A stretch of DNA of 64,000 bases from an uncultured Alphaproteobacteria bacterium (GTDB lineage: Bacteria; Pseudomonadota; Alphaproteobacteria; UBA9655): the NCBI GenBank assembly GCA_963704475.1, contig OY969900.1, positions 1,301,453 through 1,365,452 on the forward strand, written 5' to 3'. The notes below the pieces were generated by a model, which worked only from the letters and a program-made list of their open reading frames with translations, searched no databases and was not told where the DNA came from. Numbering within the stretch: the stretch's first letter is position 1; each line of letters starts with the position of its first letter. Shown here in pieces: positions 17,734-51,023 of the stretch. The position numbers and the translations under genes are program-made.

Positions 17734-17947
17734 GGTAAGATTCCTTATGTGACAACTATAGGTCGACATTAATGTTAAATATAATAATATAATTTATATT
17801 AATAATGTTAATTAATATTTAAAAATAAATTTTTATTTTTGATTTAAGCGAAGGCTCAGGAGGAAGGATGATTTGATGCAACTCGTGAATTCAGGAAGAG
17901 GTTTTGACAACGCGTTTTGAAGGCGCTATATCTTTTAATACCCCAGT

Positions 17948-22103: not shown

Positions 22104-22811
22104 ATGATCCGTCTTTATGTAAACTCTTTCCTTGGTGAGGACTTCCAGATTTCTTTGGAAGAGGCGAAAAGCCATTATGTCCAAAAGGTGATGCGCCTTA
22201 AAGAGGGAGATGACCTTCTTCTGTTTAATGGGACAGATGGGGAATGGCGCGCAAAAATCATTGCAACGCTTAAAAAGTCCACCGCCCTTCTGCTCCTTTC
22301 CAAAACCCGCCCTCAGCACTATGAGGGAGATATATGGCTTTTGTTTTCCCCCTTAAAACCAAAGCGGCAAGCGTTTTTGGAAGAAAAAGCAACGGAGTTG
22401 GGGGCATCTTGTCTGTGGCTCGTTCGTTGTGAGTACACCTCTGTTTTAAACGTAAGGGTTGAGAAGATGGAAGCCCATTGTATTGAAGCGGCTGAGCAAT
22501 CTGAACGCCTTACGGTGCCTGTGATAAAACCCTTCACTGCTTTGTCGGATCTCCTCTCCACCTGGCCCAAAGATAGAACCCTTCTTTTTGGGGATGAAAC
22601 GTTAAGCGCTCCCTCACTGGCGAGTATTTCCATTATTCCTGAAAATCGTTACGCTTTTCTTGTCGGGCCAGAAGGAGGGTTTAGTTCCATTGAGCTTGCC
22701 CTTTTGAGAGACCATCCAAACGCACAAGGAGTGACCTTAAACGCGCATATTCTGCGAGCCGAGACGGCAGCGCTGGTGGGGCTTTCTTATCTTCAGCTCA
22801 AGAAATTTTAA
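22104..22811 (+). CDS. rsmE: 16S rRNA (uracil1498-N3)-methyltransferase
   Basis: MIRLYV... start and LVGPEGGFSSIE motif. The upstream part of the ORF-track frame (from 22029) runs through repeat copy A. Confidence 0.85.
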   Translation: MIRLYVNSFLGEDFQISLEEAKSHYVQKVMRLKEGDDLLLFNGTDGEWRAKIIATLKKSTALLLLSKTRPQHYEGDIWLLFSPLKPKRQAFLEEKATELGASCLWLVRCEYTSVLNVRVEKMEAHCIEAAEQSERLTVPVIKPFTALSDLLSTWPKDRTLLFGDETLSAPSLASISIIPENRYAFLVGPEGGFSSIELALLRDHPNAQGVTLNAHILRAETAALVGLSYLQLKKF

Positions 22812-23421
22812 CCTCTTTGTCTTCTAATCGAAAGGCAATGACGAGCGTTTTGTGGATATTTCCTTCCTCAAGAGTCCATGTTTTGACAGCTGCTAAGGCT
22901 GTGTCATCCAGAAGAGAATGCCCTGAACTTTTGCAAAGGCTGACATCAACAACCTGCCCCTCTTTGTTGGTTCTGACTGTCAGGCAAACGGCTCCTTCTT
23001 GGCCCCGTTTACGACAAATCCACGGGTAGGATGGAAGAGGTTGGTGCGGAGTGATCCTGGCTTTTGCAGGCATGACTCTTGTGTTATTGTCTGTTTTTTC
23101 CAGGTTATCAGCCCGAACAACCTTGTCATCTTGAACAACCCTGTCATCCTGAACTTGTTTCAGGACCTCATTGTTGTGGGGTTCCAAATTGTCATCCCGA
23201 ACTTGTTTCGGGATCTTGTTGTCATGGGGTCCTGAAACAAGTTCAGGATGACAGGGTTGTTCAGAATGAATATCCACCCAAACCATCTCAAAAACAACGG
23301 GGTTTCCTAAAAAAATCTTTAAAAAAGAGGGGATCAAAAAATAGGCTATGCTTCCATGAAGCCCAAGCGACAGCGCAGCTGAGAGGACAAAAGGATTCTT
23401 TAATTTACTCTTATGTTTCAT
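22798..23421 (-). CDS. tonB: TonB-like energy transducer with a repeat-derived linker
   Basis: 207 aa. N-terminal TM with SxxxH (SLGLH). C-terminal TonB domain pattern (PSYPWICRKRGQEGAVCLTVRTNKEGQVVDVSL...SSGHSLLDDTALAAVKTW). ATGA overlap with the upstream receptor gene. Confidence 0.7.
   Translation of the reverse strand: MKHKSKLKNPFVLSAALSLGLHGSIAYFLIPSFLKIFLGNPVVFEMVWVDIHSEQPCHPELVSGPHDNKIPKQVRDDNLEPHNNEVLKQVQDDRVVQDDKVVRADNLEKTDNNTRVMPAKARITPHQPLPSYPWICRKRGQEGAVCLTVRTNKEGQVVDVSLCKSSGHSLLDDTALAAVKTWTLEEGNIHKTLVIAFRLEDKEVKIS
23107..23268. repeat. cluster of RPE-like elements (family 1) inside tonB
   Basis: ctgtcatcctgaacttgtttcaggacctcattgttgtgggg... followed by attgtcatcccgaacttgtttcgggatcttgttgtcatggggtcctgaaacaagttcaggatgacagggttgttcag. 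Confidence 0.85.
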
Positions 23422-25241
23422 GTTTTTGCCTCAATGCCAAAAAAGACGGCTCGCCCCCGTGAACCATATCCAAAAACTTCTTCAAACCGCTTGTTTGTGA
23501 TATTTTCGAGGCGAAAAAATAAATTTGCATTTCGACTGACATCATAAGCGCCCCCTATGTTAACGAGTCCAAAAGGAGAAAGTCTGCGATGTGTGACCGC
23601 ATCTTGTCGGCTGTTAACGTAGTAGCCTTGAATGAAGAAGGAAAGCTCCGAAAGAACGCGCCACTGAATCTCCTCGGCCACCTTAAAAGAGGGAATCAAA
23701 GGAGAGCGTATTTTCTGAGGAGAATCCTGTGACTGGGTTAAGGTCAAGGAAGTCTTCATTGTAAGAGGTTTGAATGGGGTGAGAGACAAAGCCATTTCAA
23801 GTCCTTTTGTCAAACGATGCCCCCCATTGACTCTCTGAAAAACGAATTCTGAAAGTTGAAGGGACTGGGTGATGTGATCGATTTTCGTTAAAAATCCCGT
23901 CACACTTGCTTTTGCTTGTGTGTCCCAAAAGAGCTGATCCATGCCGACTTCAACGCTTTGGCTTTTTTCTGGTTTTAAAAAAGGATTTGGGATTTGCCAA
24001 GGGGTTGTTTGAAAGAGATCGGACAAAACAGGGGGTCTAAAGTTGGTCCCAAAGCTTGTCCTCAAACATGTTGTAGACGTGATTTTTTGATCGGCCCCAA
24101 CATTAAACGTGAGGTAATTTCCTAAAAACTTAAAGTGATCCCCGCGGATCCCCCCTTTTAACTCTGTTTCCTCAAACGGTTTAAAAATATTAATCAAAAA
24201 AATCCCCCCATGGGAGCGGGTGTGAAGAGCAACCTCCTGTGCCCGCTCTTGCCCTCCTTCAACGCCACTTATAAGGGTGTGCCAAGGATTAATTTTAACG
24301 TCGTTGCGATAATTCAGCAGAGGGTGCTCTCCAATTGTAAGATTGCTAAAAGAGGGGGTGTTTGTTTCACGCTTGGTTCGCGCATAAGAGGCTTTAAGCG
24401 AATGGTCCCACACATCGTTTCCCCACTTATTATCAAGGTTGCTGAGAAGTGTTTCTGTTGTGCTAAAATTTCGTGCTTCAAAGGGAAGGATGAGATCTCC
24501 CACCATTTGGGGGTTATCAAATTGAACCTTGTCCGTTCCATATCTGATGAGGCCTTCCACTTCCCAATTATCTGTCACAGCATATCCTACACGAGAAGAG
24601 AGGCTTCCATTATGATAAGAGTCACTCATACGATTTCCATGGAGGGGATTAATAAAAGAAGAAGGCCCACGCTTGAATCCTGCCATTGTAAGGGAAAAAG
24701 TAACTGGACCCTCTTCCCCTTGAGTGCCTAGGGTCCCATAAGCTGTACGAAAACTTCCCCCCTCTGCGTGGGCTTTTAAAGAAGGTTTGCCGTGTCCCCG
24801 TTTAGGGATGAGTTGAACGACCCCTCCCAAAGCCCCTGGGCCATAAATCAGAGCCTGAGGGCCAGGTAGGATTTCAATTTTTTCAAGATCTGCGTTAAGA
24901 AAATTTGAAAGATCTGCGCTGTTTCCAGAAGCCGGATCATTGATATAAATCCCATCCATAAGCACAAGATTTTGAGAAGAACGAGCGCCCCTTATGGTAA
25001 AATCAACCTCTCGACCTAAGGGGCCGAGGGAAACTACATTTGTACTTGGTGTATAGGGCAGAGTTTGTTGAAGAAAAATTTCTTGATAGGTTTCAATCTC
25101 TTTAGCTGTAATTGTTGTTTCTTTTCCGCCTATAGATTTATTCGTGTCCGAAAGGGCGGGTGCGGTGACTTCATAGACGGGGTTTGCAAAGGCAGAGCCC
25201 CCAAAAAAAAGAACATAGGCAAGAAAAAAACGAAAAGCCAT
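23418..25241 (-). CDS. btuB: TonB-dependent outer-membrane receptor, BtuB-like
   Basis: Signal peptide MAFRFFLAYVLFFGGSAFA from the ATG at 25241. TonB-box-like PVYEVTA, a plug domain and a beta-barrel of about 600 aa. A cobalamin riboswitch lies immediately upstream. Confidence 0.82.
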   Translation of the reverse strand: MAFRFFLAYVLFFGGSAFANPVYEVTAPALSDTNKSIGGKETTITAKEIETYQEIFLQQTLPYTPSTNVVSLGPLGREVDFTIRGARSSQNLVLMDGIYINDPASGNSADLSNFLNADLEKIEILPGPQALIYGPGALGGVVQLIPKRGHGKPSLKAHAEGGSFRTAYGTLGTQGEEGPVTFSLTMAGFKRGPSSFINPLHGNRMSDSYHNGSLSSRVGYAVTDNWEVEGLIRYGTDKVQFDNPQMVGDLILPFEARNFSTTETLLSNLDNKWGNDVWDHSLKASYARTKRETNTPSFSNLTIGEHPLLNYRNDVKINPWHTLISGVEGGQERAQEVALHTRSHGGIFLINIFKPFEETELKGGIRGDHFKFLGNYLTFNVGADQKITSTTCLRTSFGTNFRPPVLSDLFQTTPWQIPNPFLKPEKSQSVEVGMDQLFWDTQAKASVTGFLTKIDHITQSLQLSEFVFQRVNGGHRLTKGLEMALSLTPFKPLTMKTSLTLTQSQDSPQKIRSPLIPSFKVAEEIQWRVLSELSFFIQGYYVNSRQDAVTHRRLSPFGLVNIGGAYDVSRNANLFFRLENITNKRFEEVFGYGSRGRAVFFGIEAKT

Positions 25242-25328
25242 AATGACCCCGCTAGAGTTGTCCGACAATTTCTTGTCGTCACCACTAACGATAGGTCGTG
25301 ACTTTTGACGCGCCCCGCGCAAAAGACT

Positions 25329-25492
25329 GGTGACTCGTTATGGCAGGTCTCCTGACTTGGGCCTCATTACCCGGATCTCCCCCTTCCCGAAGCTAATTTT
25401 CAGTGGGTTTATGGAGTGGGTTCTTCCCTTACAGTTACGGGGGTAGTCACGGTTTCACACCGTGTTCCCTCTTAGGCATTTCTGCACCATAT
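25329..25492 (-). promoter_or_regulatory. cobalamin (B12) riboswitch
   Basis: The reverse complement reads ATGGTGCAGAAATGCCTAAGAGGGAACACGGTGTGAAACCGTGACTACCCCCGTAACTGTAAGGGAAG...AAACCCACTGAAAA...CGGGAAGG...AGTCAGGAGACCTGCC. This contains the conserved AGGGAA / GGTG-GAAA-CCGT / CCCCGTAACTGTAA core and a B12-box-like CCCACTG. Confidence 0.8.
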
Positions 25493-25730
25493 CTGGGTTA
25501 AGGAATAAGTTGTTTGAGGGGGGAGGTCAAGAATTAAAAGAGAGGGTTAGCGAGAAGGTATTAGTTGTTTCAAGTGCCCTGGGTATATACGTACTTTGCC
25601 TCGAAAAAAAGTTTCTGACGTTTACGAAATCTTAATTTTCATTAATTAAACTGTCGGGAAGTCAATGACCTTCTAGTGATGATCTCCTGTGGCAAGATTT
25701 GAAGACACACTATAAAAAAGGAAGATAGAT

Positions 25731-26092: not shown

Positions 26093-26976
26093 CTAAACAC
26101 ACTGCATATCGATCAATTTTTTTCTCAGTAGCGTTTCTAAAATAGACAAAGGCGACTTTTCAGGAAAATACATAGAAGGAACGGGCAAATAGAAAGTTTG
26201 CTCAAGCAAAAATTGACCTGATAAGGCAGCGTGAGATGCTTGATCTGTCATCACAACCCATGTACTTCCACTTGGAAAGGAAAACTCCTCTGCATGGGCT
26301 TGCTGTTGATACTGCAGGTCTGCTTTCATCGCGTTATGCAATTGCAGCATGATGAAATCATAGGGTGTACGGTATCCCTGTAATGCCTAATTTCTGGAGC
26401 AAGATTGGAGGAATCCAAGCGCGATGAGAGAGGGACGGGACAAAGTGTTGAGCAACTTGCTCAAACGGTTCTCCAAGACGCCAAACACGTGGTTGCCCAT
26501 GGGGAAATATTTGAAAACACCCGCAATAATCGACGCCCTTGCACAGGTTGAGAGGCAAAAGCATCCACATGAAGGCGAGTGTCATCTTTACGATAAGAAG
26601 ACGCTTTGCGCTCCCTCACGTCTAAGGGGCGGAAGCTTGTTTTTCCCCACTCTAATGAATCTGTATAATAGGGACATAAAGATTCTATCAAGGTTCTGGC
26701 AGATTGAGCAAAACGCAGCATCATTTCCTGGAGAACGGGCGTATCTTCTCTTACAGCATGTCCTTTAAGACTCTGGGTTTGGGGATTAAAGCTAATGTTT
26801 TTTGATTTGGGGGCTTGGCTCGTTGGGGTGAGAAGTTTTTCCTCAGCTGGAAAAAGATCGAAGGCAAGGTGCGAGAGAAAAAGAACGCGCCCCTGTTCAA
26901 TACTTTCTAAAAGAGGATGCTCTCGTTGTTTTGAAAGCGAAAAATGCCACTGTTTGTCTTCTAATGTTTCCAACAT
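26093..26976 (-). pseudogene. kdoO: Kdo hydroxylase (KdoO, Fe(II)/2-oxoglutarate dioxygenase) disrupted by two frameshifts
   Basis: Three consecutive minus-strand ORFs in different frames together recreate a KdoO-like protein: ...RLHVDAFASQPVQGRRLLRVFSNISP / HGQPRVWRLGEPFEQVAQHF...LGITG / (YDF)IMLQLHNAMKADLQYQ...GSTWVVMTDQASHAALSGQFLLEQTF. Confidence 0.72.
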
Positions 26977-32593: not shown

Positions 32594-32869
32594 ATGGTGC
32601 AAGAAAGAGAGAAAAGGATGAGTAAGTCTCGGCATTCAGTTTATGTGGAAGGTAAAAAATCTTATTCTTGGTGTACGTGTCAGTTAAGCAAAAACATGCC
32701 TTTTTGTGATGGTTCTCATCACGGAACAGCATACAAATCCCTCAAATTTTCATGTCTTCGATCAGGTGAAATGGATATTTGTGGATGTGGAAGTACATCG
32801 AGTGCACCATTTTGTGACAAAAATTGTTTTAACGCCGCCGCTCAACAAGATGTCCTTGATCAAAAATAA
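32594..32869 (+). CDS. CDGSH iron-sulfur domain protein
   Basis: Two CDGSH-type motifs: [17 protein letters not shown] and [16 protein letters not shown]. Confidence 0.8.
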
Positions 32870-33347
32870 GAATTTTCAGAACGGCTCCCTTTTCATTATA
32901 GCTGACAAACTCTCCCTGACGTTTTCCTTGAACATAGGTTCCTGAAGCGAAAACAGCTCCTGAGGGGTAATATACAGTCATTTGTCCCTCAAGGCGATCT
33001 TGGTGATAGTGAAGAATCTTTTTAACACGTCCAAATTCATCGTATGCCACATAAGGGCCTTCCTTTTGTCCTTGGTTGAAATGAAGCTGTGTACGTACCA
33101 AGCCATTTGCATCATGGAATGTGGTTTCTCCATGCAACTGACCTCCATGAAAATGAGTACGCATACACGTCCCGTCTTTTCTATAAAATTCAGCAGGTCC
33201 ATGGAGGACCCCGTTTTGATAAGTTGCGCGGTGGTTTGTTTGCTCTCTGACCTGGAGTGCCGGAGTCTGAACCGCCTGCTCTTCTCCCTCTGGTGCCGTA
33301 GTATCAGGCGGAAGTTCTTCTGATATAGGGCTGAGTTTTTCTATCAT
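32829..33347 (-). CDS. MORN-variant repeat (YwqK-like) protein
   Basis: 172 aa. Repeats [13 protein letters not shown] / [11 protein letters not shown] / [17 protein letters not shown] / [12 protein letters not shown] / [15 protein letters not shown]. The start codon overlaps the vgrG stop (ATGA). Confidence 0.72.
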
Positions 33348-35611
33348 AGGACCATCGGTATTTGACCATCAATGGTGACAAGTCCCATAAGTTCGATGGT
33401 TGCTGCTGTTTCAACAATCGAAGCTCCAGCGGTGAGTTCAAGAGCTGCCCCAGCTGTTATGGCGGCATTGGCGCCTGCGGTGAGCTCGACAGCGGCACCT
33501 GCAGTTATTGCCGCATCTGCTGCAGCTGTGATTGTAACGGCTGCGCCCGCTGTGATTTCCGCTGCTTCTCCGGCTGTCATGGCAAGAGCCGCACCCGCTG
33601 TTATTGATGCCTCTGCGCCAGATGTGAGTGTCAGAGCCGCACCCGCTGCTATTGCCGTATCCGCTCCCGCTTTGAGGGACATCGCACCCCCTACGTCCGT
33701 ACTCAATGCAGCGGCTGTCTTTATATTCACCCCTTTTGCGGCATCAATATTAAAAGTACCTGTGCATTTGACAGACATGTTGCCATCAACATCAAAGCTT
33801 ACATTGCCTTTCGTACAGGTAACCGTGATATTTCCCTCCATCAGCTTAATTGAATAATTTCCCTTATCAATTTGTAGGGATTTATTTCCTTTTGTTAATT
33901 TTACGCTGACATTGCCATCCGTTAATTGGAGGGAATAATCACCCTTATCGATATGAATGGATTTATTCCCGTTCTTTAATGTTAAACTGTCATTACTTTT
34001 GTCGCCGGAGCGTTTTTCAAGATGTTCTTCTTTGGACTGAAGTGTAATGGTTCGGTTGCCGCCAACAACCGTAATTTCCTGGTTGTTTTGGACAAGAACC
34101 TTTAAATCTTTTTGAGCATGGAGATAAATCTCCTCCTCGCCCTTTTTATCTTCAAACCGTAACTCGTTGTAGCCTGGTTCTGACTCTTCGCCTTTTTTAG
34201 ATGTTTGAGTTTTTATTGTTGCTTTTGTTGGGTGACCTGGCAAATAGGGGGGCTTGTGGTCCCCATTATAAACGGATCCTACAACCAGGGGCTTATCTGG
34301 GTCCCCATCAATGAAGGATACAACTACCTCTTGACCTACACGGGGGGTAAATAATGTCCCCCAGGTTTGTCCGGCCCATAGGGTTGCAACGCGAATCCAG
34401 CACGAGGTTGAATCATCGTTTTTTTCTGAGGGATCCCAGTGAAATTTAACCTTAATACGACCGTATTCTTCCGTATAAATTTCTTCGCCTTTTTTCCCCG
34501 TCACTTTGGCTGTCTGTGTGCCATAGATATAAGGTTTTGGGGTAATGAGAGGTGCTTTAAACGGAACAGTGGCTGGAAAGGCCCGATAGCTATTTTCATA
34601 AAGGTGCTGGCCTTCTTCTTCCGGCACACGTCGCGCTTCATGGATCACTTCCATCAACACGTATTCTAAGTTTGCATCCTCTCGCGGGTGCTCTTTCAAG
34701 TGGAACTTGTATCCAGCAAGAAAGAAGGGAACAGTTGAAAGGCCTTCCACCATTTTTTGAGATCTTTCTGCGGCTTGGAGCTTTACCTTACTTAAGCTAT
34801 CTCCACGGCTTTGTTTGTCATAAATTTCCTCATAATCCGTGAGATTCCCTCCCCCACTCGTCGAATTTCCTGTAGCAAGGGCTTTAAGCTGCGTTTGAGG
34901 CGTTAGATAATTATAACTCTTCAGTGTGTTGCTTTTAGGAACAATACGCTGTGTAATACAGCAAGAACTAACACGTAGCATAACCTGGTCCATAACGGCA
35001 CTATCATGAAAGTTTGCAGAAGCAGCATGAGGACACGGATGATGCGCTGCTGGTGCATCTGCCAGAACAAGGGTATGATTGTCTTTCGTTTGCTGAAAGA
35101 AATAAAAAATCCCCTCTCTCTCCATGAGTCGTGAGATAAAATTAAAGTCTGTTTCATTATATTGAACACAAAAATCAAGGGGAGCCTTGCCAGAATGTGT
35201 CACCTTATCTGAATGAGGAATTTGGTGTTCACTCAAAACATGTTTGATGATGTCAATGGCGGACTTGTTTTGGAAAATACGACATTGCCCAGAAAACGTT
35301 AAAAGCCAAAGTTTAGGGTAAAGAATCGCTTTATAATTTGTTTGATATTTTAGGGGTTTAAAGGGTGTGTCATCTTGTTCAAAACACCCAATAATTCCAT
35401 TGTAGGTACGGGTTTCAGATCCTATTTTAAGAGAAACCGTTGCGCTTTTCCCCATCAATGAGCTGAAATTTACAGTACGACTTTCAGATGTCATGAAAAG
35501 CGTATATTCAAACAGAGAAGATAGACGTTCAATGCCTCGGAAACTTTGGAGTGTAAAAGTCTCAGAAGGTGTTTTGACATCTAAAAAGACTTTATCTTTC
35601 TGATCCGGCAT
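33344..35611 (-). CDS. vgrG: type VI secretion spike protein VgrG
   Basis: FTLQSFRGIERLSSLFEYTLFM N-terminus, GQEVVVSFIDGDPDKPLVVGSVYNG gp5 OB motif, and a C-terminal 8-residue beta-helix repeat (ITAGAALE/LTAGANAA...). The ATG at 35611 with an AGGA RBS is preferred over the TTG at 35644. Confidence 0.9.
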   Translation of the reverse strand: MPDQKDKVFLDVKTPSETFTLQSFRGIERLSSLFEYTLFMTSESRTVNFSSLMGKSATVSLKIGSETRTYNGIIGCFEQDDTPFKPLKYQTNYKAILYPKLWLLTFSGQCRIFQNKSAIDIIKHVLSEHQIPHSDKVTHSGKAPLDFCVQYNETDFNFISRLMEREGIFYFFQQTKDNHTLVLADAPAAHHPCPHAASANFHDSAVMDQVMLRVSSCCITQRIVPKSNTLKSYNYLTPQTQLKALATGNSTSGGGNLTDYEEIYDKQSRGDSLSKVKLQAAERSQKMVEGLSTVPFFLAGYKFHLKEHPREDANLEYVLMEVIHEARRVPEEEGQHLYENSYRAFPATVPFKAPLITPKPYIYGTQTAKVTGKKGEEIYTEEYGRIKVKFHWDPSEKNDDSTSCWIRVATLWAGQTWGTLFTPRVGQEVVVSFIDGDPDKPLVVGSVYNGDHKPPYLPGHPTKATIKTQTSKKGEESEPGYNELRFEDKKGEEEIYLHAQKDLKVLVQNNQEITVVGGNRTITLQSKEEHLEKRSGDKSNDSLTLKNGNKSIHIDKGDYSLQLTDGNVSVKLTKGNKSLQIDKGNYSIKLMEGNITVTCTKGNVSFDVDGNMSVKCTGTFNIDAAKGVNIKTAAALSTDVGGAMSLKAGADTAIAAGAALTLTSGAEASITAGAALAMTAGEAAEITAGAAVTITAAADAAITAGAAVELTAGANAAITAGAALELTAGASIVETAATIELMGLVTIDGQIPMVL

Positions 35612-35851
35612 CTTTATTCCTTTTTTATTTCCTGCCGCCGTCAACTGCTTTTTTTGGAGTTTTCGAGAATGAGTATGCCGTAAGCAAAGGTATATTTCAA
35701 AAGCTTTCTGAGCGTAATCCTGACTTCTTAAATACTAATTCTATATTTACTCTATACTTAATTTATACAATTTATTTACTGTATTTAACAAATAATAAAC
35801 TATTTTAATTTATTATAAAAGTATAGAGAATATTTTTGTATATGGAGTACG

Positions 35852-38047
35852 ATGATGAAAAAAATTATATTTGCACTTGGAATGACAACCTGTTTAGAAA
35901 ACATCGTGTTAGCAGGCGCTGATTCAAATGCCCTTATGACCGCAGACTCTCTCCATAATCTAATTGCTCAGCAAGCAAAAAAAACAAAGAATATTCAACA
36001 CACCTCTTTTCGGACGGGGATACCCGCCTCGCAGGGGATATCCGCCTCGCACTTACTTGAGACGAGAGGAGAAATGCCAACAGAAAACTCTTCTCATAGA
36101 GCATACACGAATTTTGCACATACCACCTCAACCGTAACTCATAGTGACAGCAGAAGAGATACGCACAGTGATAATGATAAGCAACTTGTAGCTCCAGTTG
36201 TCACTTCTACAGCACAGTCTTCTGTCGTTCCAATGACGCATTCAAGTAGTTTTTCTTCATCTGAAACACATGTATCTGCTACGAAGCGGCATCCGTCTGC
36301 AGCGCAGAATGAGATTTTTTATGCTACGCAACTTAGCCCTACAGAGCAGATTTCTGCAGCACAGCCCTCTGTTGGCTCTACGCACTCACCTGATTTTAGT
36401 ACCAGCCACGTTTTAACATCAGCTGAGGGGGGGGTAATTCATCACGATGATAGCAATTCAAGGGGACGTATTACACGTCAGGACAGTTTTGGGACAACAC
36501 CATCAGAAGGTAGTCGAGCACAATCGAGTCCTTCAACGCCGAGGTCTAATAGGCCTCCCCTCGTTTCTTTTTTGAGGGGGAACGACAACGAACTACCATC
36601 TCCCACAAATGATAGAGGTGCTCCTCCTCCACAGAGAAGAAATACACTAGCGGGATTAGACTTAGCAGGTCTTCCAACTCATATGGGGTCTCGTACAGGG
36701 TCAGCAGTAGCCTCTGCGTTACAAACGCCTCGAGGTGGTACACCAGGTAGGGCCCCACAACGTGCTGATAGCAATGTTAGTAGTATTAGTACATGGACAT
36801 CAGTGTCATCAGCGGCAGCAATGTCATCAGCGGTAAGTATCAAAGAGGAGTTCGTGGTAGACCCAAGAAGAGGCCAACCACGAACCCCTGCGGGAGCTGC
36901 TGTTGTAGCGAGTGACAGCACAACCCCCTCCTCCTGGGCATTTGTTGGTGAGGAGCACGAAGGACAAATAAGCGGCGCAGCTAAGGGGCGGAAAGATGAT
37001 TCTGATACAGATGATGCTCCTCCTCCTGGCGCTCCTCCTGAACGCAGAAGTACACTGCGACAAGAAGACCTAGCAAAACCAGGAGGAGGTCCTGGTGGTT
37101 TTTTGCGTTCTATCGCACAATGGTGGAACTCTACTGCTAACGACCATTCTGCTGATGGGGCAGTTGCTTCTGGTGGAGGACTTTCTGTTTTCGCTGGGGG
37201 AAATCCTGTTGCTGCTGGGAGAGGTCATGCCGGTATGGCATCTTCTTCAGGAAATGGCCAGTCGAATGCAGCTCCTGTTGTTGCGGCTTCTTCCCCTGCT
37301 CATGCTGTTGCTAGTACCCCTGATCTAGAGGGTTGGTCCGATTTGGAATCGGGTGGAAAAACTCCTCCTTTATTTAATAAAAGAGACGACGGAGCAGATC
37401 CTCTTCCTGATTCCGGTGGTTTTGTTGGTGGAAATCTTTTTGCGAATGGGGGCGCGGCTCGAGATGATTCGGGGACTCCAAGCGGTTGGAGCAGTAGTAG
37501 TATGGCAGATAACACGGGTGGAGCAGGAATAGCAGACGCAGGAAATGATTCTAGTGGCGGTGGAGCAGGAGGAGATTCTGGCAGTGGTTCTGATGGAGGT
37601 GGTAGCGGCGGTGGAGCTGCCGGAGGAAGTGACGCTGGTGGTAGCAGTGGTGGAGCAGGTGGGGGGAATGATGGAGGTGGTAACGGCGGTGGAGCCGGTG
37701 GAGGAAATGATGGTGGTGGTAACGGCTCTGGGGGCGGCTCAGGGGGTGGTTCTGATGGAGGTGGTAGCGGCGGTGGAGCCGGAGATTCTGGCGGCGGTGG
37801 AGCAGGTGGAGGAAATGATGGTGGTGGTAACGGCGCTGGGGGCGGCTCAGGGGGTGGTTCCGATGGAGGTGGCGCCGGCAGCGGTGGAGCAGGTGGGGGG
37901 AATGATGGAGGTGGCGCCGGCAGCGGTGGAGCCGGAGGAAATGATTCCGGTGGTGGTGGAGCTCCAGGAGATGGCGCCGGTGGTGGAGCACCAGGAGGAG
38001 ATGCTGCTGGTAATAATAACAAAGATGGTGGTTGCGCTATAGCGTAG
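35852..38047 (+). CDS. hypothetical secreted, disordered Ser/Thr/Pro- then Gly-rich protein ending in the CaaX box CAIA
   Basis: 731 aa with a GGAG RBS and a signal-like N-terminus MMKKIIFALGMTTCLENIVLAGA. About 190 C-terminal residues are G/N/D/S/A repeats. The last codons are TGC GCT ATA GCG TAG (38033-38047). Confidence 0.6.
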   Translation: MMKKIIFALGMTTCLENIVLAGADSNALMTADSLHNLIAQQAKKTKNIQHTSFRTGIPASQGISASHLLETRGEMPTENSSHRAYTNFAHTTSTVTHSDSRRDTHSDNDKQLVAPVVTSTAQSSVVPMTHSSSFSSSETHVSATKRHPSAAQNEIFYATQLSPTEQISAAQPSVGSTHSPDFSTSHVLTSAEGGVIHHDDSNSRGRITRQDSFGTTPSEGSRAQSSPSTPRSNRPPLVSFLRGNDNELPSPTNDRGAPPPQRRNTLAGLDLAGLPTHMGSRTGSAVASALQTPRGGTPGRAPQRADSNVSSISTWTSVSSAAAMSSAVSIKEEFVVDPRRGQPRTPAGAAVVASDSTTPSSWAFVGEEHEGQISGAAKGRKDDSDTDDAPPPGAPPERRSTLRQEDLAKPGGGPGGFLRSIAQWWNSTANDHSADGAVASGGGLSVFAGGNPVAAGRGHAGMASSSGNGQSNAAPVVAASSPAHAVASTPDLEGWSDLESGGKTPPLFNKRDDGADPLPDSGGFVGGNLFANGGAARDDSGTPSGWSSSSMADNTGGAGIADAGNDSSGGGAGGDSGSGSDGGGSGGGAAGGSDAGGSSGGAGGGNDGGGNGGGAGGGNDGGGNGSGGGSGGGSDGGGSGGGAGDSGGGGAGGGNDGGGNGAGGGSGGGSDGGGAGSGGAGGGNDGGGAGSGGAGGNDSGGGGAPGDGAGGGAPGGDAAGNNNKDGGCAIA
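37540..38010 (+). repeat. imperfect in-frame tandem repeats encoding GGGNDGGGNGxGGGSGGGSDGGG-type units
   Basis: ggaaatgatggtggtggtaacggc[tc/gc]tgggggcggctcagggggtggttc[t/c]gatggaggtgg occurs twice about 108 nt apart (about 37703 and 37811), with shorter ggtgg/ggagg sub-repeats throughout. Confidence 0.8.
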
Positions 38048-38053
38048 GCACTC

Positions 38054-38605
38054 TCATCCACCCCGCTGTTCGAGGGTAAGGAGCTGAGCTTTGCGCTCTA
38101 CTCCTCCCCCATAGCCACCTAAAGCGCCATTCGTATTGATGACGCGGTGGCAAGGGATCAGAATGGCTATCTGATTTGCACCATTTGCATTGGCAACGGC
38201 TCTATAAGCTGAGGGTTTTTCAATTCTTGCAGCAATGTCAGCATAAGAGCACGTTTGACCATAAGGAATTTTTCGGAGTTCTGCCCACACACGCATCTGA
38301 AAGGGAGTTCCAAAAGACAAGAAAGGAGTAAAGAATTCTTGTAATTTTCCGTCAAAATATTGGGTTAATTCAGCCTCAATAGAGCGAATGGGCTCTGCGA
38401 TCCCTGGAACAATGGTTGATTTTGTTTTGTGCTTTAAACGCTCAATTCCCCGCTCCAACCCGCGGCGACCCGCAAATTCTAGAAGATAAAGGGCGTCCTT
38501 ATCCCCAATCGCAATCATCGGCCCAAATTTTGTGTTCAACTGCGAGATGTTAAGAACATGACCTGGGTTCTCTAAATGCGTGGATGCTAAGATACGAGAA
38601 ATCAT
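38054..38605 (-). CDS. ogt: methylated-DNA--protein-cysteine methyltransferase
   Basis: PCHRVINTNGALGGYGGG active-site motif. The ATG at 38605 overlaps the HIT gene stop (TAATG). The ORF track begins at 38644. Confidence 0.85.
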   Translation of the reverse strand: MISRILASTHLENPGHVLNISQLNTKFGPMIAIGDKDALYLLEFAGRRGLERGIERLKHKTKSTIVPGIAEPIRSIEAELTQYFDGKLQEFFTPFLSFGTPFQMRVWAELRKIPYGQTCSYADIAARIEKPSAYRAVANANGANQIAILIPCHRVINTNGALGGYGGGVERKAQLLTLEQRGG

Positions 38606-39214: not shown

Positions 39215-39305
39215 TTAAAACCTACATACTGCGTCTCTCTTCATAAAATGTTAACCTTTTTCATGATATCACTCGCCTATGTACAGAAACAACGAGAGAA
39301 TTGTC

Positions 39306-39584
39306 ATGAAATATTTTTACCTCTTTATAGGCTTTATCCTATGTATGGGCCCTCTTAAGGCGGTGGATCTTTCTTCCTGCCATCAAAACTGTTTTAAAAA
39401 CAAATTAATCTGTAATCAGCAATACGGCCATACGGTAAATTCTTGCGACAAGCATCTCATGGCGTGCAAGGGAAGCTGTAACAGTGGAAAACCCCAGAAT
39501 GCCTATTATAATCCTTCTCTTAAAGTTGCTTTTAATCCAATCCTTGAAGGGAAGGACGTGTTGAAAAAAGTTCTAGGCGGGTAA
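39306..39584 (+). CDS. hypothetical small secreted Cys-rich protein
   Basis: MKYFYLFIGFILCMGPLKA signal peptide and 6 Cys in the mature part. The RBS is weak, and the 3-prime end overlaps the convergent DMT gene by about 50 nt. Confidence 0.4.
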   Translation: MKYFYLFIGFILCMGPLKAVDLSSCHQNCFKNKLICNQQYGHTVNSCDKHLMACKGSCNSGKPQNAYYNPSLKVAFNPILEGKDVLKKVLGG

Positions 39585-42453: not shown

Positions 42454-42517
42454 ACACCTTGCCTCTCCTCCGCAGAATAATATATTCTGTCCTATGAAAA
42501 AGGGAGGGACGGAGGAC

Positions 42518-43450
42518 ATGATCACAAAATTTTTAGACCCAAAAAATGACCTTGCGTTTAAACGGATTTTTGGCACAGAACGAAACAAAGACATTCTGAT
42601 CCATTTTCTTAATGATATGTACGGGCGCACAACCAATCCTATAGAGGACGTCACTTTTTTGAAGACGAATCTTGATCCGAAGATTGCTTCACAGCGAGAG
42701 AGTATTGTCGATGTTTTATGTCGCGATACCTTAGGCGAGCATTTCATTATTGAGATGCAGGTGTCGGATGAGCCTGGCTTTGTTAAGCGTGCCCAACATT
42801 ATGCCGCCAAAGCCTACATTGAGCAGCGGGATAAAGGGATTGGCTATAAGGATCTAAAATCAGTTACATTTATGGCCATTACAAGCTATATCCTCTTCCC
42901 CGATAAAGCTGATTATTTGTCCCATCATCAGGTGCGGGATGTAGCAACAAACGAGCATGATCTTAAAGATTTTTCGTTTACTTTTTTGGAGCTTCCAAAA
43001 TTTAAGCTTACAAAAGACCAGCTCACAACGATGACACAAAAATGGGCGTATTTTTTCAAAAACGCGAAGGAAACCCACGAGGCAGAGGTGGAAGCCATTG
43101 TTGGCGCAGATCTCATCCTCAAACGGGCGTATGAAGAACTCAACCGATTTGGGTGGTCGCAAGAGGAGCTCCGTGGCTATGACTCTGTGGATATGAAAAG
43201 AGAATCTGACAAAGCTTGCCTCTGGGGCGCTGAAGAAAAAGGCTTGCAAAAAGGCCTTGCGCGGGGACGGAAGGAAGGAAAAAAAGAGGGAATTAAAGAG
43301 GGGATCGCAAAAGGGATGGAAAAGGGTATGGAAAAGGGCAGAAAAGAAATTGCTAAGGCACTGCTGAAAAATGGCATGGATGTCGAAGAAGTGGCTAAAA
43401 TAACTTCTCTTCCCTTGGAAACGATTGAGCTGTTGAAGATAGAACAATAA
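42518..43450 (+). CDS. Rpn-family recombination-promoting nuclease / PD-(D/E)XK putative transposase
   Basis: LDPKNDLAFKRIFG N-terminus, IVDVLCRD...FIIEMQV nuclease core, and a Lys/Glu/Gly-rich C-terminal repeat followed by an LPLETIELLK helix, as in TIGR01784/PF12784 proteins. The ORF track begins at 42494. Confidence 0.8.
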   Translation: MITKFLDPKNDLAFKRIFGTERNKDILIHFLNDMYGRTTNPIEDVTFLKTNLDPKIASQRESIVDVLCRDTLGEHFIIEMQVSDEPGFVKRAQHYAAKAYIEQRDKGIGYKDLKSVTFMAITSYILFPDKADYLSHHQVRDVATNEHDLKDFSFTFLELPKFKLTKDQLTTMTQKWAYFFKNAKETHEAEVEAIVGADLILKRAYEELNRFGWSQEELRGYDSVDMKRESDKACLWGAEEKGLQKGLARGRKEGKKEGIKEGIAKGMEKGMEKGRKEIAKALLKNGMDVEEVAKITSLPLETIELLKIEQ

Positions 43451-46594: not shown

Positions 46595-46826
46595 CACAGG
46601 TCTAAAAATATCAGATATTCGAATATAAAGTATTTTTTAAACTCTTTAATGCTTGACTTCCAAGAAAGATGGATCTTTAGTGAAAAAAAAAGATAAGAAA
46701 TATGATGAAGCTGTTAAAGATAAAAAGACAGCCACGTGAAAGATTCAATATCATGAGTGCAAGGAATTGTTGTATAGTATCTCACAGTCTCGGGGAAACG
46801 CGCCAAGATGGGGAAGGGGAAGAAAA

Positions 46827-49800
46827 ATGATCCGATTATTTTTCTTTCAAAAGTTCTTCTCTCAAAAACATCTGCTGGTTGCCCTTCGTTCTTTTGGGAC
46901 CCGCGTTCTGTGTTGGCTCCTTATCAGTTCAATTCTTGCCTCTGATTTAGCCTATGCGATGCAAAAGCCAGGGCTGGGGCAGCACGCGGATGATGCATCA
47001 GGTGTCGTTGTCCCCCCCTCAGTTCCAGTTCGACGCCAGGATGCAGCTGCATCTGCTGCAGTACCTCCTCTTCCCGATAGTTCTACCTCCTCATCGAGTC
47101 GGCGTTTTCTCCATGATACAGCAGAGGAGGGTACGTCTCTTGGTATGAGGTCCCCCTCAGGAGTTGCGGTTGCAGGAGCTGCGGTTTCTGGAAGTGAGAG
47201 TGTTCCAGTCGTGGCTATGCTTGCAGCAAAACTAGAAGATGCCGCAAGACCAGCAGATGCTGCGCAACAAACAGATGTCGCAAAACCACGAGGGTCTTCT
47301 GACGAAACAACCCCAGAGAGAAAACCATCTCCGCCAGGATCTGGATCAGGGTCTTCAACACCTCCTGGGGAAAATCCTTTGGCACAACGCACGTCGTCAG
47401 GGACTCCCACGCCACCCGGTGGATCATCTGGGAACGAATCATCAACTTCTCACCCTGTTGGAGTACCCGCCACCGCTCAGCCTCTTCCTACAGCATCTGC
47501 CACCGCTCAGTCTCTTGTGGAGGTCGCAAGAGCTGCGTCTCTTGCCTCTGCACCTCCTCCTGTGCCTCTTACACCTGCAGCTGGTTTAGCTACTGGGGTG
47601 AGTCAGGGTGATAAAAAAGTACCCACTCCACAGAGGGCCCCTCTAGACCCACATCGCCCTTCTGCAGCTCCAGCAAATGAAAACACCTCCTCTCCTAATC
47701 TTGAGATTCCAAGTAATTCTCGTTTTTCCGCATCTGTAGTGCAGAGAACGCATATCATCAATGACGACGATCCGGGGGCTTTAGCTCGGGGAAATGAAGA
47801 TAGCGATACGGACACTGATCCTGATTCTGAGCTTGATTGGGGGGGTATAATCTATCCACGTGGCCCACGTTCTGAAGCTGGCCATTCGTCTGCTGCAGAG
47901 GGAGGAGATGAAAAAACTCCGCTTCTTCCTTCTGCGTCTAGTTCCGCCCGTTTCATGCAGGAAGGCCAACGTCTCGTCGATGAATATAACCGTCTCAAAG
48001 ACGTACACGGAGAAGATTCTCCGGAAGCGCTTGAAGCTAAGCGTCTCATGGATCAATATTATGCCATAGATAATTCGGAGGGATCCGGGGGACGGAAGCT
48101 TGGACCGAACCAGGGGCGCCTGAATGATGAACAGCTGAAAGAGCTTTTCGGCAGGCTTCATAACTTCGACCCGAAAACAGCTGAATTCTTACGCTACGCT
48201 AAAGACTCCATCATCGATGGTACGTTGACCAAAAAACAAATGGCGGCTCTGCTCTTTGCCATAGTCATGGGAGGGGGGGCAGGGGCGGCGGCAGCGGCTC
48301 CATTGATGTATTCATTAGCTTATTTTAGTAATGAGTTTAAGGAGGGTAATTTATTAGGTTCGATCCTTCCGTTCTTCGTAAATGTAACCCAAGCTCTCGA
48401 TGCCATGTCCCGTTTAGGATCGAACGCGGTGAGGATAGCACGTCCTGATTCAGAGGCCTTTTTGATGCCTGTGACGTCAGCTCATCGATGGGTGAGATGT
48501 GTAGCCCTCGGATTAATCGTTTTAGCCTCCACGGCTTTGGCAGTGCTCCCCCTTTATTATCTCTATGAAGCTCAATTTAAAAATATGCTTGTTGCCAAGA
48601 GTAAAGGAGAAGACGTCACGCCTATTGAAATTTTCCTCTACATAACCGCTCCTGGATATCTATTGTACCATATTGTGGCCCATAGTGGCTTTCCCGGTGT
48701 GAAGTGGGCACTTGAGATGGTGAAGGAGATTTATTATGCCCCTTTGCGTCAAGCAGCGCCCCAAGATGAAAAGATGCGTAATGAGATTTCATGGCGTCTT
48801 CAAGATACGGTCCGTCTGTTGAATCACCTGTCAGATGGGGAGATCGATCAATTCTATACCCTCCTTTTTGAGCGACGGGTTGAGGACACACCCCATCTTC
48901 GGTCTTTGTTAGACGGATCGATATGGCAGTCAAGGGGGAAGGTTTTTTACACCGTGGAAGAAATTAACCGTTTGACAAAGAAAGGCGTGTTGCGGCCACA
49001 AGATGTTGAGCTAACTGAAGAAGAAAGAATCGCCCTTGCCTCTGCTTTGCGGAAGAAACAACAAAATCTTCAAGCTGATCCTGTGATCGGCTCGCTCTTG
49101 AAGAAATATGCAGAAAAACGGTCTGAAGAAGCAAGAGTTACCCTTGCCGCTGCGTTGAGACAGAAGAACCAGAACTTAAAAACTGATCCAGTGATCGGTC
49201 CCATACTTAAGAGATATGTAGAGAGACGTCAGCAGACCGAATCTAGCTTTTCATTAGACGAGGCTGAGAGAGACTTGATTCTAGGTAGAATAGAGGTCGA
49301 ATGTAGTTTTTCATTGGACGATGCCGAGAGATACCTGACTCAAAGTCGTGCGCTCACCCCAGATGAAATAGGGGCCGCAACTCAAGCCCTCTGCGTTTGG
49401 TATTTAAGACCAGGGGCTGTGCTTACACCGCGAGAAATGGAGCGTCTGACCACAAAAGGTTTCCTTACGGATCAAGATAAGGAAATGACAGATGAGGAAA
49501 GACTTAAGCTTGCGCAAGACATGAAGGAGGATGCGTGGAACGCCGTCCTTCAGCGTCACCTCGGCCGCCAACACCAGTTTGTGTCTGTAGAGGAGCAGAA
49601 TAAATACTTTGCTAAGAGTCGCACGCTTAAAGAAGAGGAAAGAGAAGCCGCTCTTCAGACCCTTATCACTCAAATGGAAGCCATGCGGACCTTAGGAGTC
49701 ATTTCGGCCTTTCACGACGAAAATTACAAATCCTTTCCGCAAGCCCTGCCACAGGAAAAGATCCATGATCTCTCCGATAAGGTTGCAACTACTTCAAAGG

Positions 49801-51023
49801 CACTGTCCGTTGTTGGGAAAGCGGTCGCTTTTTATTGGTTGTTTAATGGGTTTTTAGCAACTCCAAATTTCGTAGAAGATCCTGCGACATCTGCGAGCAA
49901 TGGGAATACAAGTAATGCAAATACAACGGCGGGCAATATGACAGTCAGTGGAAACGACGCACCTTTACCAGGCCCTGCAGGTCACTTCATTGCGGCGGTG
50001 CTGACAGTGGGTGAAATGATTGTTCTAGGGAAAATTGAGAAGAACGGTGTGCGGAACTTTTTCTTCCGCCTGATGGGGGGGAAGGACCTCAACGATCATA
50101 CCTCCCACCCCTTCCCCCGTATGGCGATACGGATCCTTTCTGGTCTTGTCGGGGCGTTTAATACCCTCCCCTTTTTAATCTTAGGGATGAAGGCAACGGA
50201 AAGTTGGGGAGATAGCCCTGGGGCAATTGTGGGAAAAATCCTCCTGCTTGCCCCTTACGTTTTTGCAGATATTTTCCGGAACATACGAAACTATTTAGAC
50301 CCTTATCAAGCCCTCCTTTCTGCGTTTGAGAAAGTATGGGCGAAGATATATGGCAAATGTGGGTGTGGGCCTACTTGTGAGCCGTCGTCTGGATATAAGC
50401 GGGATACGTTGAAGGCGATACTCATTGCTATCTTGGAGCTCTTTGGAGATGCCGCCTGGGAAGTTGTCAGAGATCTGAATAAGTTGATAGGCTCAAAAGC
50501 CTTAAGGGGGGGAGAGCAGAAAAACCCCGGTAGGTTTCAGACGGCAAGAGGCGCTATAGAATGCGACGATAGTCACCCCGTCCTTGGTACGTTGGTAGAG
50601 GCTTTGAAAGCGACAAACCGAGTGCCACCAGAAGACGGATTTTTAGAGTTAGACGAGGCCTCACGAGCGTCCTTTGAGTCCTTAATGGCTACCAAAAGTG
50701 GCACGAGGGTGCAGGGAAGTCAAGCTGCCACTTACGGAACTGGGACAACTGCAGCTACTAGTACAGGGGCACAAACACCCATAGCCGTTTCTCCTCTTCC
50801 TGATGGGGACGACCAAGCAGTCCTGAGTCAGTTCCAAGAGCAGCGCTCACAGGCTGCGGAGCCGCCGCTGACGTTGTGTGAGAAAGGAGCTGCTCGTTGG
50901 ACGCAATTTCAAGAGGAGATTGAGACGCAGGGACTGTGTGTTGTTATGAAAGCATACGCCTATTCTGCCCTCTGCGTCCTTGCTTCTTACCTCTGGACCT
51001 TCTTCCAATGGATAGCGCTCTAA
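46827..51023 (+). CDS. hypothetical large polytopic membrane protein with a disordered N-terminal third, internal repeats and a C-terminal tail anchor
   Basis: The ORF track gives 1418 aa. The ATG at 46827 gives MIRLFFFQKFF...VLCWLLISSILASDLAYA (signal or anchor). About 330 S/P/A/T-rich residues follow, then at least 8 hydrophobic helices, repeated RLTxKGxLxxQDxExTxEER modules, and a terminal hydrophobic YAYSALCVLASYLWTFFQWIAL. Confidence 0.6.
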   Translation: MIRLFFFQKFFSQKHLLVALRSFGTRVLCWLLISSILASDLAYAMQKPGLGQHADDASGVVVPPSVPVRRQDAAASAAVPPLPDSSTSSSSRRFLHDTAEEGTSLGMRSPSGVAVAGAAVSGSESVPVVAMLAAKLEDAARPADAAQQTDVAKPRGSSDETTPERKPSPPGSGSGSSTPPGENPLAQRTSSGTPTPPGGSSGNESSTSHPVGVPATAQPLPTASATAQSLVEVARAASLASAPPPVPLTPAAGLATGVSQGDKKVPTPQRAPLDPHRPSAAPANENTSSPNLEIPSNSRFSASVVQRTHIINDDDPGALARGNEDSDTDTDPDSELDWGGIIYPRGPRSEAGHSSAAEGGDEKTPLLPSASSSARFMQEGQRLVDEYNRLKDVHGEDSPEALEAKRLMDQYYAIDNSEGSGGRKLGPNQGRLNDEQLKELFGRLHNFDPKTAEFLRYAKDSIIDGTLTKKQMAALLFAIVMGGGAGAAAAAPLMYSLAYFSNEFKEGNLLGSILPFFVNVTQALDAMSRLGSNAVRIARPDSEAFLMPVTSAHRWVRCVALGLIVLASTALAVLPLYYLYEAQFKNMLVAKSKGEDVTPIEIFLYITAPGYLLYHIVAHSGFPGVKWALEMVKEIYYAPLRQAAPQDEKMRNEISWRLQDTVRLLNHLSDGEIDQFYTLLFERRVEDTPHLRSLLDGSIWQSRGKVFYTVEEINRLTKKGVLRPQDVELTEEERIALASALRKKQQNLQADPVIGSLLKKYAEKRSEEARVTLAAALRQKNQNLKTDPVIGPILKRYVERRQQTESSFSLDEAERDLILGRIEVECSFSLDDAERYLTQSRALTPDEIGAATQALCVWYLRPGAVLTPREMERLTTKGFLTDQDKEMTDEERLKLAQDMKEDAWNAVLQRHLGRQHQFVSVEEQNKYFAKSRTLKEEEREAALQTLITQMEAMRTLGVISAFHDENYKSFPQALPQEKIHDLSDKVATTSKALSVVGKAVAFYWLFNGFLATPNFVEDPATSASNGNTSNANTTAGNMTVSGNDAPLPGPAGHFIAAVLTVGEMIVLGKIEKNGVRNFFFRLMGGKDLNDHTSHPFPRMAIRILSGLVGAFNTLPFLILGMKATESWGDSPGAIVGKILLLAPYVFADIFRNIRNYLDPYQALLSAFEKVWAKIYGKCGCGPTCEPSSGYKRDTLKAILIAILELFGDAAWEVVRDLNKLIGSKALRGGEQKNPGRFQTARGAIECDDSHPVLGTLVEALKATNRVPPEDGFLELDEASRASFESLMATKSGTRVQGSQAATYGTGTTAATSTGAQTPIAVSPLPDGDDQAVLSQFQEQRSQAAEPPLTLCEKGAARWTQFQEEIETQGLCVVMKAYAYSALCVLASYLWTFFQWIAL

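Follow-up and report, generated by a model that had tools for sequence, protein, structure and literature searches.

Can a protein made by an uncultured alphaproteobacterium be lipidated by a eukaryotic host? The question is raised by an open reading frame (ORF) of 731 codons at 35852..38047 (+) in a 64,000-nucleotide stretch of contig OY969900.1 (assembly GCA_963704475.1), the whole of which is called the window below. The encoded chain ends in ...AAGNNNKDGGCAIA*, its terminal codons being TGC (38033-38035), GCT, ATA and GCG followed by TAG (38045-38047), and its last four residues, C-A-I-A, form a canonical CaaX tetrapeptide. Our answer, to which we give a probability of roughly 0.38, is that this apparently exported, disordered protein reaches the cytosol of a host cell, where CAIA would be farnesylated, trimmed and methylated and the chain tethered to host endomembranes. 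More generally, we infer that the protein is lineage-specific, exported by the Sec pathway and intrinsically disordered, and that it acts at or beyond the bacterial surface.

A maintained orphan gene that ends in a CaaX tetrapeptide

That the ORF is a real, maintained gene can be stated with high confidence. No stop codon interrupts its 545 non-repeat codons, whereas shuffles of the same bases (n = 5000) contained 26.8 stops on average and 9 at the minimum, and the remaining five frames over this region hold 11-45 stops each. GC content at the three codon positions is 0.62/0.65/0.31 (GC1/GC2/GC3) in a window of 44% GC. Across the region GC reaches up to 67%, which is attributed to amino-acid composition because the third position stays AT-biased as in native genes. 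A Shine-Dalgarno sequence (GGAG, 35844-35847) is located 7 nt 5' of the second ATG, at which the public gene call (P0001, 730 aa) begins. At the other end, the stop codon is separated by 6 nt from that of the convergent gene ogt. This gap (38047..38054) leaves no intergenic room for a terminator, and the nearest terminator-like hairpin on the + strand lies inside ogt, at 38197-38211.

Opposite the Gly repeats lies an antisense ORF that most likely arises as a shadow, (GGN)n being read there as (CCN)n, since it is open only inside the repeat array whereas the + ORF runs on through 1.6 kb of unique sequence. Within the repeats, (GGN)n on the + strand equals (CCN)n on the - strand with the same third-position pattern, and GC3 periodicity cannot choose the strand there; the + frame was adopted because it is continuous with the unique 1.6 kb and not because of periodicity. 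Differences between repeat copies fall on codon positions 3, 2 and 1 in numbers of 40, 34 and 19, a distribution that is weakly informative on an excess at synonymous sites.

The protein can be divided into five segments (Table 1). By inspection, residues 1-22 resemble a Sec-type signal peptide, with two lysines (KK) in the n-region, an 11-residue hydrophobic core and V-L-A ahead of a candidate cleavage site; the hydropathy maximum of the whole protein (2.16) is centred on residue 10. Residues 23-545 are rich in Ser (15%), Ala (12%), Gly (10%), Thr (8%) and Pro (8%), and residues 546-731 consist of 54% Gly, 13% Ala, 12% Ser, 9% Asp and 7% Asn. Tandem Repeats Finder detected imperfect DNA periods of 39, 42, 87 and 108 nt between 37591 and 38011. 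Residues 546-720 carry a net charge of about -16, and their last large hydrophobic residue is I560. Disorder-promoting residues amount to 60-81% in this protein versus 49% in GyrA, and AlphaFold2, run on the single sequence, gave a mean predicted local distance difference test (pLDDT) score of 33 and no secondary structure, which fits disorder and is weak evidence alone. The placement of two residues near the C-terminus stands out against this background. There are only two cysteines, C14 in the predicted signal peptide and C728, which is accordingly the sole Cys after the signal peptide, and Ile730 is the sole I/L/V/M/F of the last 170 residues. An initial annotation of this DNA had described the same terminal codons and the same architecture, with a signal-like N-terminus, an S/T/P/A-rich region and Gly/Asn/Asp/Ser repeats, and both descriptions agree with the reading of the ORF, its composition and its hydropathy.

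The best internal match is a pair of RRxTL/APPP motifs at residues 258-272 (APPPQRRNTLAGLDLA; nt about 36623-36667) and 390-408 (APPPGAPPERRSTLRQEDLA; nt about 37019-37075). It is not significant, as 52 of 200 shuffles scored as high. RRxTL fits the R-R-x-S/T-hydrophobic consensus of eukaryotic PKA/AGC kinases.

Several other protein classes were considered and rejected. The lipobox of bacterial lipoproteins, [LVI][ASTVI][GAS]C, is absent, M-T-T preceding C14. No RTX calcium-binding repeat family was matched; the type I Gly-Asp repeat GGxGxDxUx needs a hydrophobic residue at position 8 whereas the repeats here contain no hydrophobic residues, and RTX proteins have no N-terminal signal whereas one is apparent here. 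With regard to C-terminal sorting signals (LPXTG, PEP-CTERM, GlyGly-CTERM, MYXO-CTERM), the chain ends three residues past the Cys and gave no NCBIfam match, and sortase/exosortase-type as well as glycosylphosphatidylinositol (GPI)-like readings were ruled out on their defining features. An autotransporter or other type V protein was discarded on the grounds of no Pfam domain, a C-terminus with 54% Gly and no predicted strands.

The protein is a strict orphan. Word-index searches with the whole protein and with residues 1-545, and an exhaustive phmmer search with residues 1-545 against 1.84 billion cluster representatives, returned the self-match only. Searches of Pfam, NCBIfam and PDB sequences, a Joint Genome Institute (JGI) metagenome scan with the protein, and tblastn, run with low-complexity filtering on and off, against the vgrG loci of relatives (160 loci, 2.37 Mb), gave zero matches. 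The lack of a recognisable homologue, which the initial annotation had judged by eye, is thus upheld at the scale of these searches. Within the window there is no paralogue, and no similarity was found to two other orphan-like disordered proteins encoded there.

Two metagenome assemblies contain the organism. The Logan contig matches the window at 100% identity and ends at 36433, which truncates the gene. A long-read contig in ENA (L082, ERZ25039528 contig_89703) is 99.45% identical, with the same length of the repeat array and with 19 scattered indels over 7.3 kb that disrupt ogt and vgrG too. At the equivalent of window position 38043 it has a GTG codon in place of GCG, and the resulting CAIV differs from CAIA but keeps both the Cys and the CaaX pattern. 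Because this contig is noisy (the 19 indels and other mismatches), the change is not trustworthy and is probably a sequencing error.

Table 1. Position in the window of the segments of the ORF product and of adjoining features.
Feature	Position	Strand	Remarks
Predicted signal peptide, residues 1-22, MMKKIIFALGMTTCLENIVLAG	35852..35917	+	Sec-type by inspection
Low-complexity non-repeat region, residues 23-545	35918..37486	+	Predicted disordered (composition, AlphaFold2)
Gly/Ala/Ser/Asp/Asn repeats, GGGNDGGGNGGGAGGG-like, residues 546-720	37487..38011	+	Tandem Repeats Finder, composition
Linker NNNKDGG, residues 721-727	38012..38032	+	Short, flexible, hydrophilic, non-repeat; directly N-terminal of Cys728
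C728-A-I-A and TAG stop	38033..38047	+	Canonical CaaX tetrapeptide
Antisense ORF, 253 aa, Pro-rich	37300..38061	-	Antisense to the Gly repeats; GTG start within the 3' end of ogt; regarded as a shadow ORF
Intergenic region between vgrG and the ORF	35612..35851	.	Divergent; AT-rich, about 28% GC
Type VI module: vgrG (33344-35611) and MORN/YwqK-family protein (32829-33347)	32829..35611	-	Divergent from the ORF; no evidence of a functional link found

Substrate quality and chance expectation of CAIA

Prenylation predictors such as PrePS favour a flexible, hydrophilic linker before the Cys. The NNNKDGG segment and the Gly-rich region are flexible and hydrophilic and therefore make a linker of this kind. 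The quality of CAIA itself was judged from published yeast data sets on the tetrapeptide. Berger et al. (2022) list CAIA in their supplementary tables as positive by the support vector machine, FlexPepBind, PrePS and frequency scores for prenylation and by both cleavage scores, with a prenylation probability of 0.985, a cleavage probability of 0.994 and assignment to the class 'cleaved' (canonical). The Ras-reporter heat-map of Kim et al. (2023) gives it a value of 15.1, next to 19.9 for CAIM, 18.8 for CAIS, 1.2 for CAAA and 1.05 for CAKA, and its Ydj1 enrichment factor of 0.69 in the same work is low like those of other CAIx sequences assigned to the cleaved or canonical class (CAIM 0.82, CAIS 0.74). 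Drosophila Rab40, whose C-terminus is also CAIA, is listed as a predicted substrate of farnesyltransferase (FTase). For the tetrapeptide, the PrePS check proposed in the initial annotation has a positive answer in published tables, and the CaaX pattern noted there is good by the Berger predictors as well as by the Ras score.

From composition, a C-[AVILM]-[AVILM]-X ending is expected in 0.00137 of proteins, that is, about 0.06 times in a window of 47 ORFs and about twice in a genome of 1400 genes, and for this reason the CAIA motif alone is not statistically significant. As an empirical background we took 1957 gene-like ORFs from the window and the 160 related loci. A Cys at position -4 was found in 25 of them (1.3%), a hydrophobic a2 residue accompanied it in three of the 25, and only the protein studied here has a canonical CaaX. 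What raises the motif above background is its placement, in that the mature chain has no Cys other than Cys728 and no late aliphatic residue other than Ile730, and also its carrier, a non-housekeeping, apparently exported orphan of a host-dependent lineage.

Probable lineage of the bacterium and the adjacent vgrG locus

Chromosomal housekeeping genes make up the neighbourhood in the window (mutS, lipid A genes, gyrA, NAD-GDH, yidC, leuS, parAB and rho). The nearest relatives are uncultured alphaproteobacterial metagenome-assembled genomes (MAGs), with identities of 58-67% for VgrG, 78-83% for GyrA, 75-78% for MFS and 74% for YidC; farther VgrG matches (35-39%) come from Ca. Paracaedibacter symbiosus, Ca. 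Odyssella, Paracaedibacteraceae and Ca. Finniella. The relatives of VgrG, GyrA, MFS and SSB, together with the [ywqK-vgrG] module, point to a Paracaedibacter-like (Holosporales) endosymbiont as the probable source, plausibly an intracellular symbiont of protists. Paracaedibacter-like Holosporales live in obligate association with eukaryotic, mostly protist, hosts. This plausible association with protists, which the initial annotation could not have known, makes its effector idea more credible.

Type VI secretion is the main candidate system for effector delivery in Holosporineae, and in Bodocaedibacteraceae, Paracaedibacteraceae and Caedimonadaceae its genes are described as scattered over four loci, [ywqK-vgrG] among them. 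According to a review of 2025, the type VI system of Holosporales is conserved, with no secreted molecule or host target identified. We found no literature that combines CaaX motifs with Holosporales. No type III or type IV secretion genes were found within the 64-kb window, and no type III or type IV signal is visible in the protein.

The pair of vgrG and the MORN/YwqK gene recurs in most of the 160 fetched loci (L001-L163), which range from Paracaedibacter-like MAGs to Burkholderiaceae. Directly upstream of vgrG, about 11 close relatives (GyrA 78-83%) have a co-oriented gene for an ABC substrate-binding protein of about 303 aa, preceded by the MFS, SSB and GyrA genes; other relatives have yidC/symporter or different genes at this place. 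Among the positional orthologues upstream of vgrG in about 25 relatives (ABC substrate-binding protein, MFS, SSB, GyrA and others), none resembles the orphan, and none of the 160 related vgrG loci contains a gene like it. The orphan sits at a synteny break with the relatives. In the window, the ABC substrate-binding gene is missing beside vgrG, and gyrA, SSB and MFS are 17-22 kb from vgrG versus about 2-5 kb in relatives. A PD-(D/E)XK transposase-family gene (PDDEXK_2, 42494..43450, +) adjoins yidC/rnpA about 4.5 kb from the variable region and may be relevant to local rearrangement.

The gap between vgrG and the orphan measures 207 bp from the TTG start and 240 bp from the MPDQKDK start of the gene calls. 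It holds a weak sigma-70-like site on the + strand (35720-35747) by consensus match only, five such sites being present versus 3.1 expected in shuffles. The divergent, AT-rich spacing of 240 bp that the initial annotation had reported is therefore correct for the called start. The co-regulation or shared delivery with vgrG that it had suggested is not supported, because the adjacency occurs in none of the 160 vgrG loci and the upstream genes differ in relatives.

Two further proteins of the window, of 445 aa (16432..17769, -) and 1418 aa (46767..51023, +), fall into no Pfam or NCBIfam family; each begins with a hydrophobic, signal-like stretch and has long Ser/Thr/Pro/Ala-rich regions. Neither ends in a CaaX motif and neither resembles the orphan; the 445-aa protein shares its codon signature (GC2 0.54, GC3 0.32), and the 1418-aa protein has several predicted membrane segments. 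Exported, disordered proteins of orphan-like character seem to form a repertoire in this genome. A 101-aa ORF with a signal-like N-terminus, six Cys and a sub-threshold Pfam match only (39279..39584, +) overlaps with its 3' end a convergent gene for an EamA-type transporter by about 50 nt. Elsewhere, a cobalamin riboswitch (117 bits; 25325..25506, -) stands directly 5' of the genes for a TonB-dependent receptor (23418..25322, -) and a TonB-like protein (22798..23421, -), which together argue for regulated B12 uptake in a small genome. A homologue of Kdo hydroxylase (26461..26976, -; 171 aa) covers positions 3-147 of a 275-position profile and may be truncated.

Host farnesylation weighed against coincidence

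If the protein is farnesylated by a host, its course would be as follows. The 22-residue signal peptide would carry the chain over the inner membrane and be cleaved, leaving a mature protein with a single Cys, at -4. The chain would leave the envelope, for instance by vesicles, by lysis or by a secretion pathway not visible in the window, and enter the host cytoplasm, where such symbionts live. There, host FTase would lipidate Cys728, Rce1 would strip AIA and ICMT would methylate the new C-terminus. A flexible, acidic chain of about 700 residues would then be anchored on the cytosolic face of host endomembranes, where it could serve as a tether or present short linear motifs as a scaffold.

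A number of observations weigh against this course. The Sec signal sends the protein to the periplasm, from which no outer-membrane route is known for it, and every CaaX effector validated so far is a substrate of type III or type IV secretion and has no Sec signal. Of the host-prenylated effector proposed in the initial annotation, the canonical motif stands, and the Sec-type signal is atypical of the validated examples. According to one preprint, (yeast) FTase binds CAIA with low affinity. Near C728 there is neither a polybasic stretch nor another site for lipidation, and the neighbouring sequence is acidic (net charge -16); membrane affinity would be weak for these reasons. About two such motifs per genome are due by chance, and the 12 C-terminal residues may be arbitrary, encoded where the frame passes out of the repeats into unique DNA and runs on to a stop. 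As the protein has no orthologues, the conservation of Cys728 cannot be weighed, and the likely identity and lifestyle of the organism are themselves drawn from relatives.

One rival is an exported envelope or surface protein with a coincidental CaaX, an explanation to which we give somewhat less than even odds. Such a protein could be an entropic spacer in the periplasm or on the surface, a coat component or an adhesin, or it could be released unlipidated, and its last 12 residues would simply be what the unique DNA encodes from the end of the Gly array to the nearest stop. The Sec-type N-terminus, the lack of a visible type III/IV signal or machinery, the acidic, non-basic flank of the tail and a Cys whose conservation cannot be shown all favour it, as do a base rate of 0.14% per protein (about two per genome) for classic CaaX endings, a Cys at -4 in 1.3% of background ORFs and the presence in the window of two other signal-bearing, disordered, orphan-like proteins, neither of which has a CaaX. 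It leaves unexplained, however, why the only Cys and the only aliphatic residue within the 170 C-terminal positions occupy precisely -4 and -2, a context optimal for FTase; moreover, an unstructured periplasmic chain of 700 residues would face proteases, and no anchoring feature is present (lipobox, beta-barrel and C-terminal sorting domain are all absent). Alternatively, the gene could be young or decaying fast, lineage-specific and under no selected function, born at a rearrangement junction beside vgrG with a C-terminal third that is mostly repeat expansion. Its orphan status at every search sensitivity used, its position exactly at the synteny break, the imperfect tandem repeats, which suggest recent expansion, and the lack of a predicted fold would fit. 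We nevertheless consider this improbable given 545 non-repeat codons without a stop versus 27 expected, the strong periodicity of GC by codon position with a native-like, AT-biased third position, the well-placed ribosome-binding site and DNA that is identical or nearly so in two independent metagenome assemblies. Reduced genomes also tend to delete non-functional DNA.

Less probable still is that the protein is type VI cargo, with the neighbouring VgrG spike delivering it and vgrG sharing its regulation. Divergent transcription from vgrG over a shared AT-rich region of 207-240 bp is in line with it, and so is the standing of type VI secretion as the main candidate delivery system in Holosporineae. 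Yet the adjacency is found in 0 of 160 related vgrG loci while the vgrG-MORN/YwqK pair is conserved, and the gene does not follow vgrG together with an adaptor but lies upstream in divergent orientation. A Sec-type signal would be atypical, since type VI cargo loads from the cytoplasm, and Pfam and NCBIfam searches found no PAAR, MIX or adaptor-binding domain and no marker or toxin domain that could be recognised. Delivery together with VgrG is therefore unlikely on the combined grounds of adjacency, N-terminus and domain content. The two readings in which the motif is coincidental, taken together, come out slightly likelier than host farnesylation, at just over even odds. We committed to host farnesylation because it is the only reading that offers a mechanism for the motif; lipidation by a host is plausible, with the motif as its sole support.

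Among known systems, the closest parallel is found in Legionella pneumophila, an intracellular, amoeba-associated bacterium whose AnkB and PelA-K likewise end in a CaaX. Their Cys is lipidated by host FTase or geranylgeranyltransferase (GGTase), which anchors them to the cytosolic face of host membranes, and they are often mutually dissimilar orphans. In contrast to the protein described here, they are Dot/Icm type IV substrates without Sec signals, and most have folded eukaryotic-like domains (F-box/ankyrin, RCC1). Legionella has 7-11 CaaX proteins, a clear enrichment, whereas a single one is known here, from sequence, with a Sec-type signal, no fold and no homology. Salmonella SifA and GtgE are similar in being translocated effectors whose C-terminal Cys motif is prenylated by the host and leads to membrane association; they differ in being type III substrates and folded enzymes or adaptors of a vacuolar animal pathogen, and their sequences are unrelated to that of the orphan. 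Eukaryotic proteins such as Ras, lamin B, yeast a-factor (CVIA) and Drosophila Rab40 (CAIA) share the motif class (a2 = Ile, X = Ala) and a flexible linker of the hypervariable type, whereas the orphan has no GTPase or other folded domain and no polybasic or palmitoylation signal, and is a bacterial gene with a putative bacterial export signal.

Within Holosporales, Ca. Bodocaedibacter vickermanii, a cytoplasmic symbiont of Bodo saltans, is probably the same kind of organism with the same split type VI layout, including [ywqK-vgrG], and its genome of 1.39 Mb is similar in size to the contig that bears the orphan (1.46 Mb). Hundreds of its uncharacterised, mostly lineage-specific proteins are predicted to be secreted, and CaaX motifs or host lipidation have been reported for none. 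The 63-kDa and 89-kDa periplasmic proteins of Holospora obtusa are released to the host compartment during infection, which provides a precedent in Holosporales for Sec-exported proteins reaching the host. They differ in belonging to the specialised infectious form of a nuclear symbiont and in having no CaaX, and no sequence similarity to the orphan was detected.

Should host farnesylation be real, the orphan would be a new and unrelated host-prenylated bacterial protein from a new lineage, with an unusual architecture. A bolder and rather unlikely proposition makes it the first effector candidate from Holosporales, and also the first protein of a protist endosymbiont beyond the gammaproteobacterial pathogens to be prenylated by the host. 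In this proposition, a Sec-exported, wholly disordered, acidic chain of about 700 residues would get out of the symbiont envelope, be farnesylated by the host at CAIA and act as a lipid-anchored tether or scaffold, CaaX mimicry having arisen de novo on an orphan gene and not by eukaryotic gene transfer. If the motif is coincidental, the locus would be a calibration case, in which a sequence-perfect CaaX on a plausible protein may be one of the 1-2 per genome due to chance. Holosporales symbionts are widespread in protists, and a built-in, easily mutated lipidation signal offers a directly testable entry point. If the reading is true, the hijacking of CaaX processing would extend beyond Legionella and Salmonella to mutualist or addictive symbionts of protists and to Sec-exported, fully disordered proteins, with a eukaryotic short linear motif evolved on an orphan bacterial gene.

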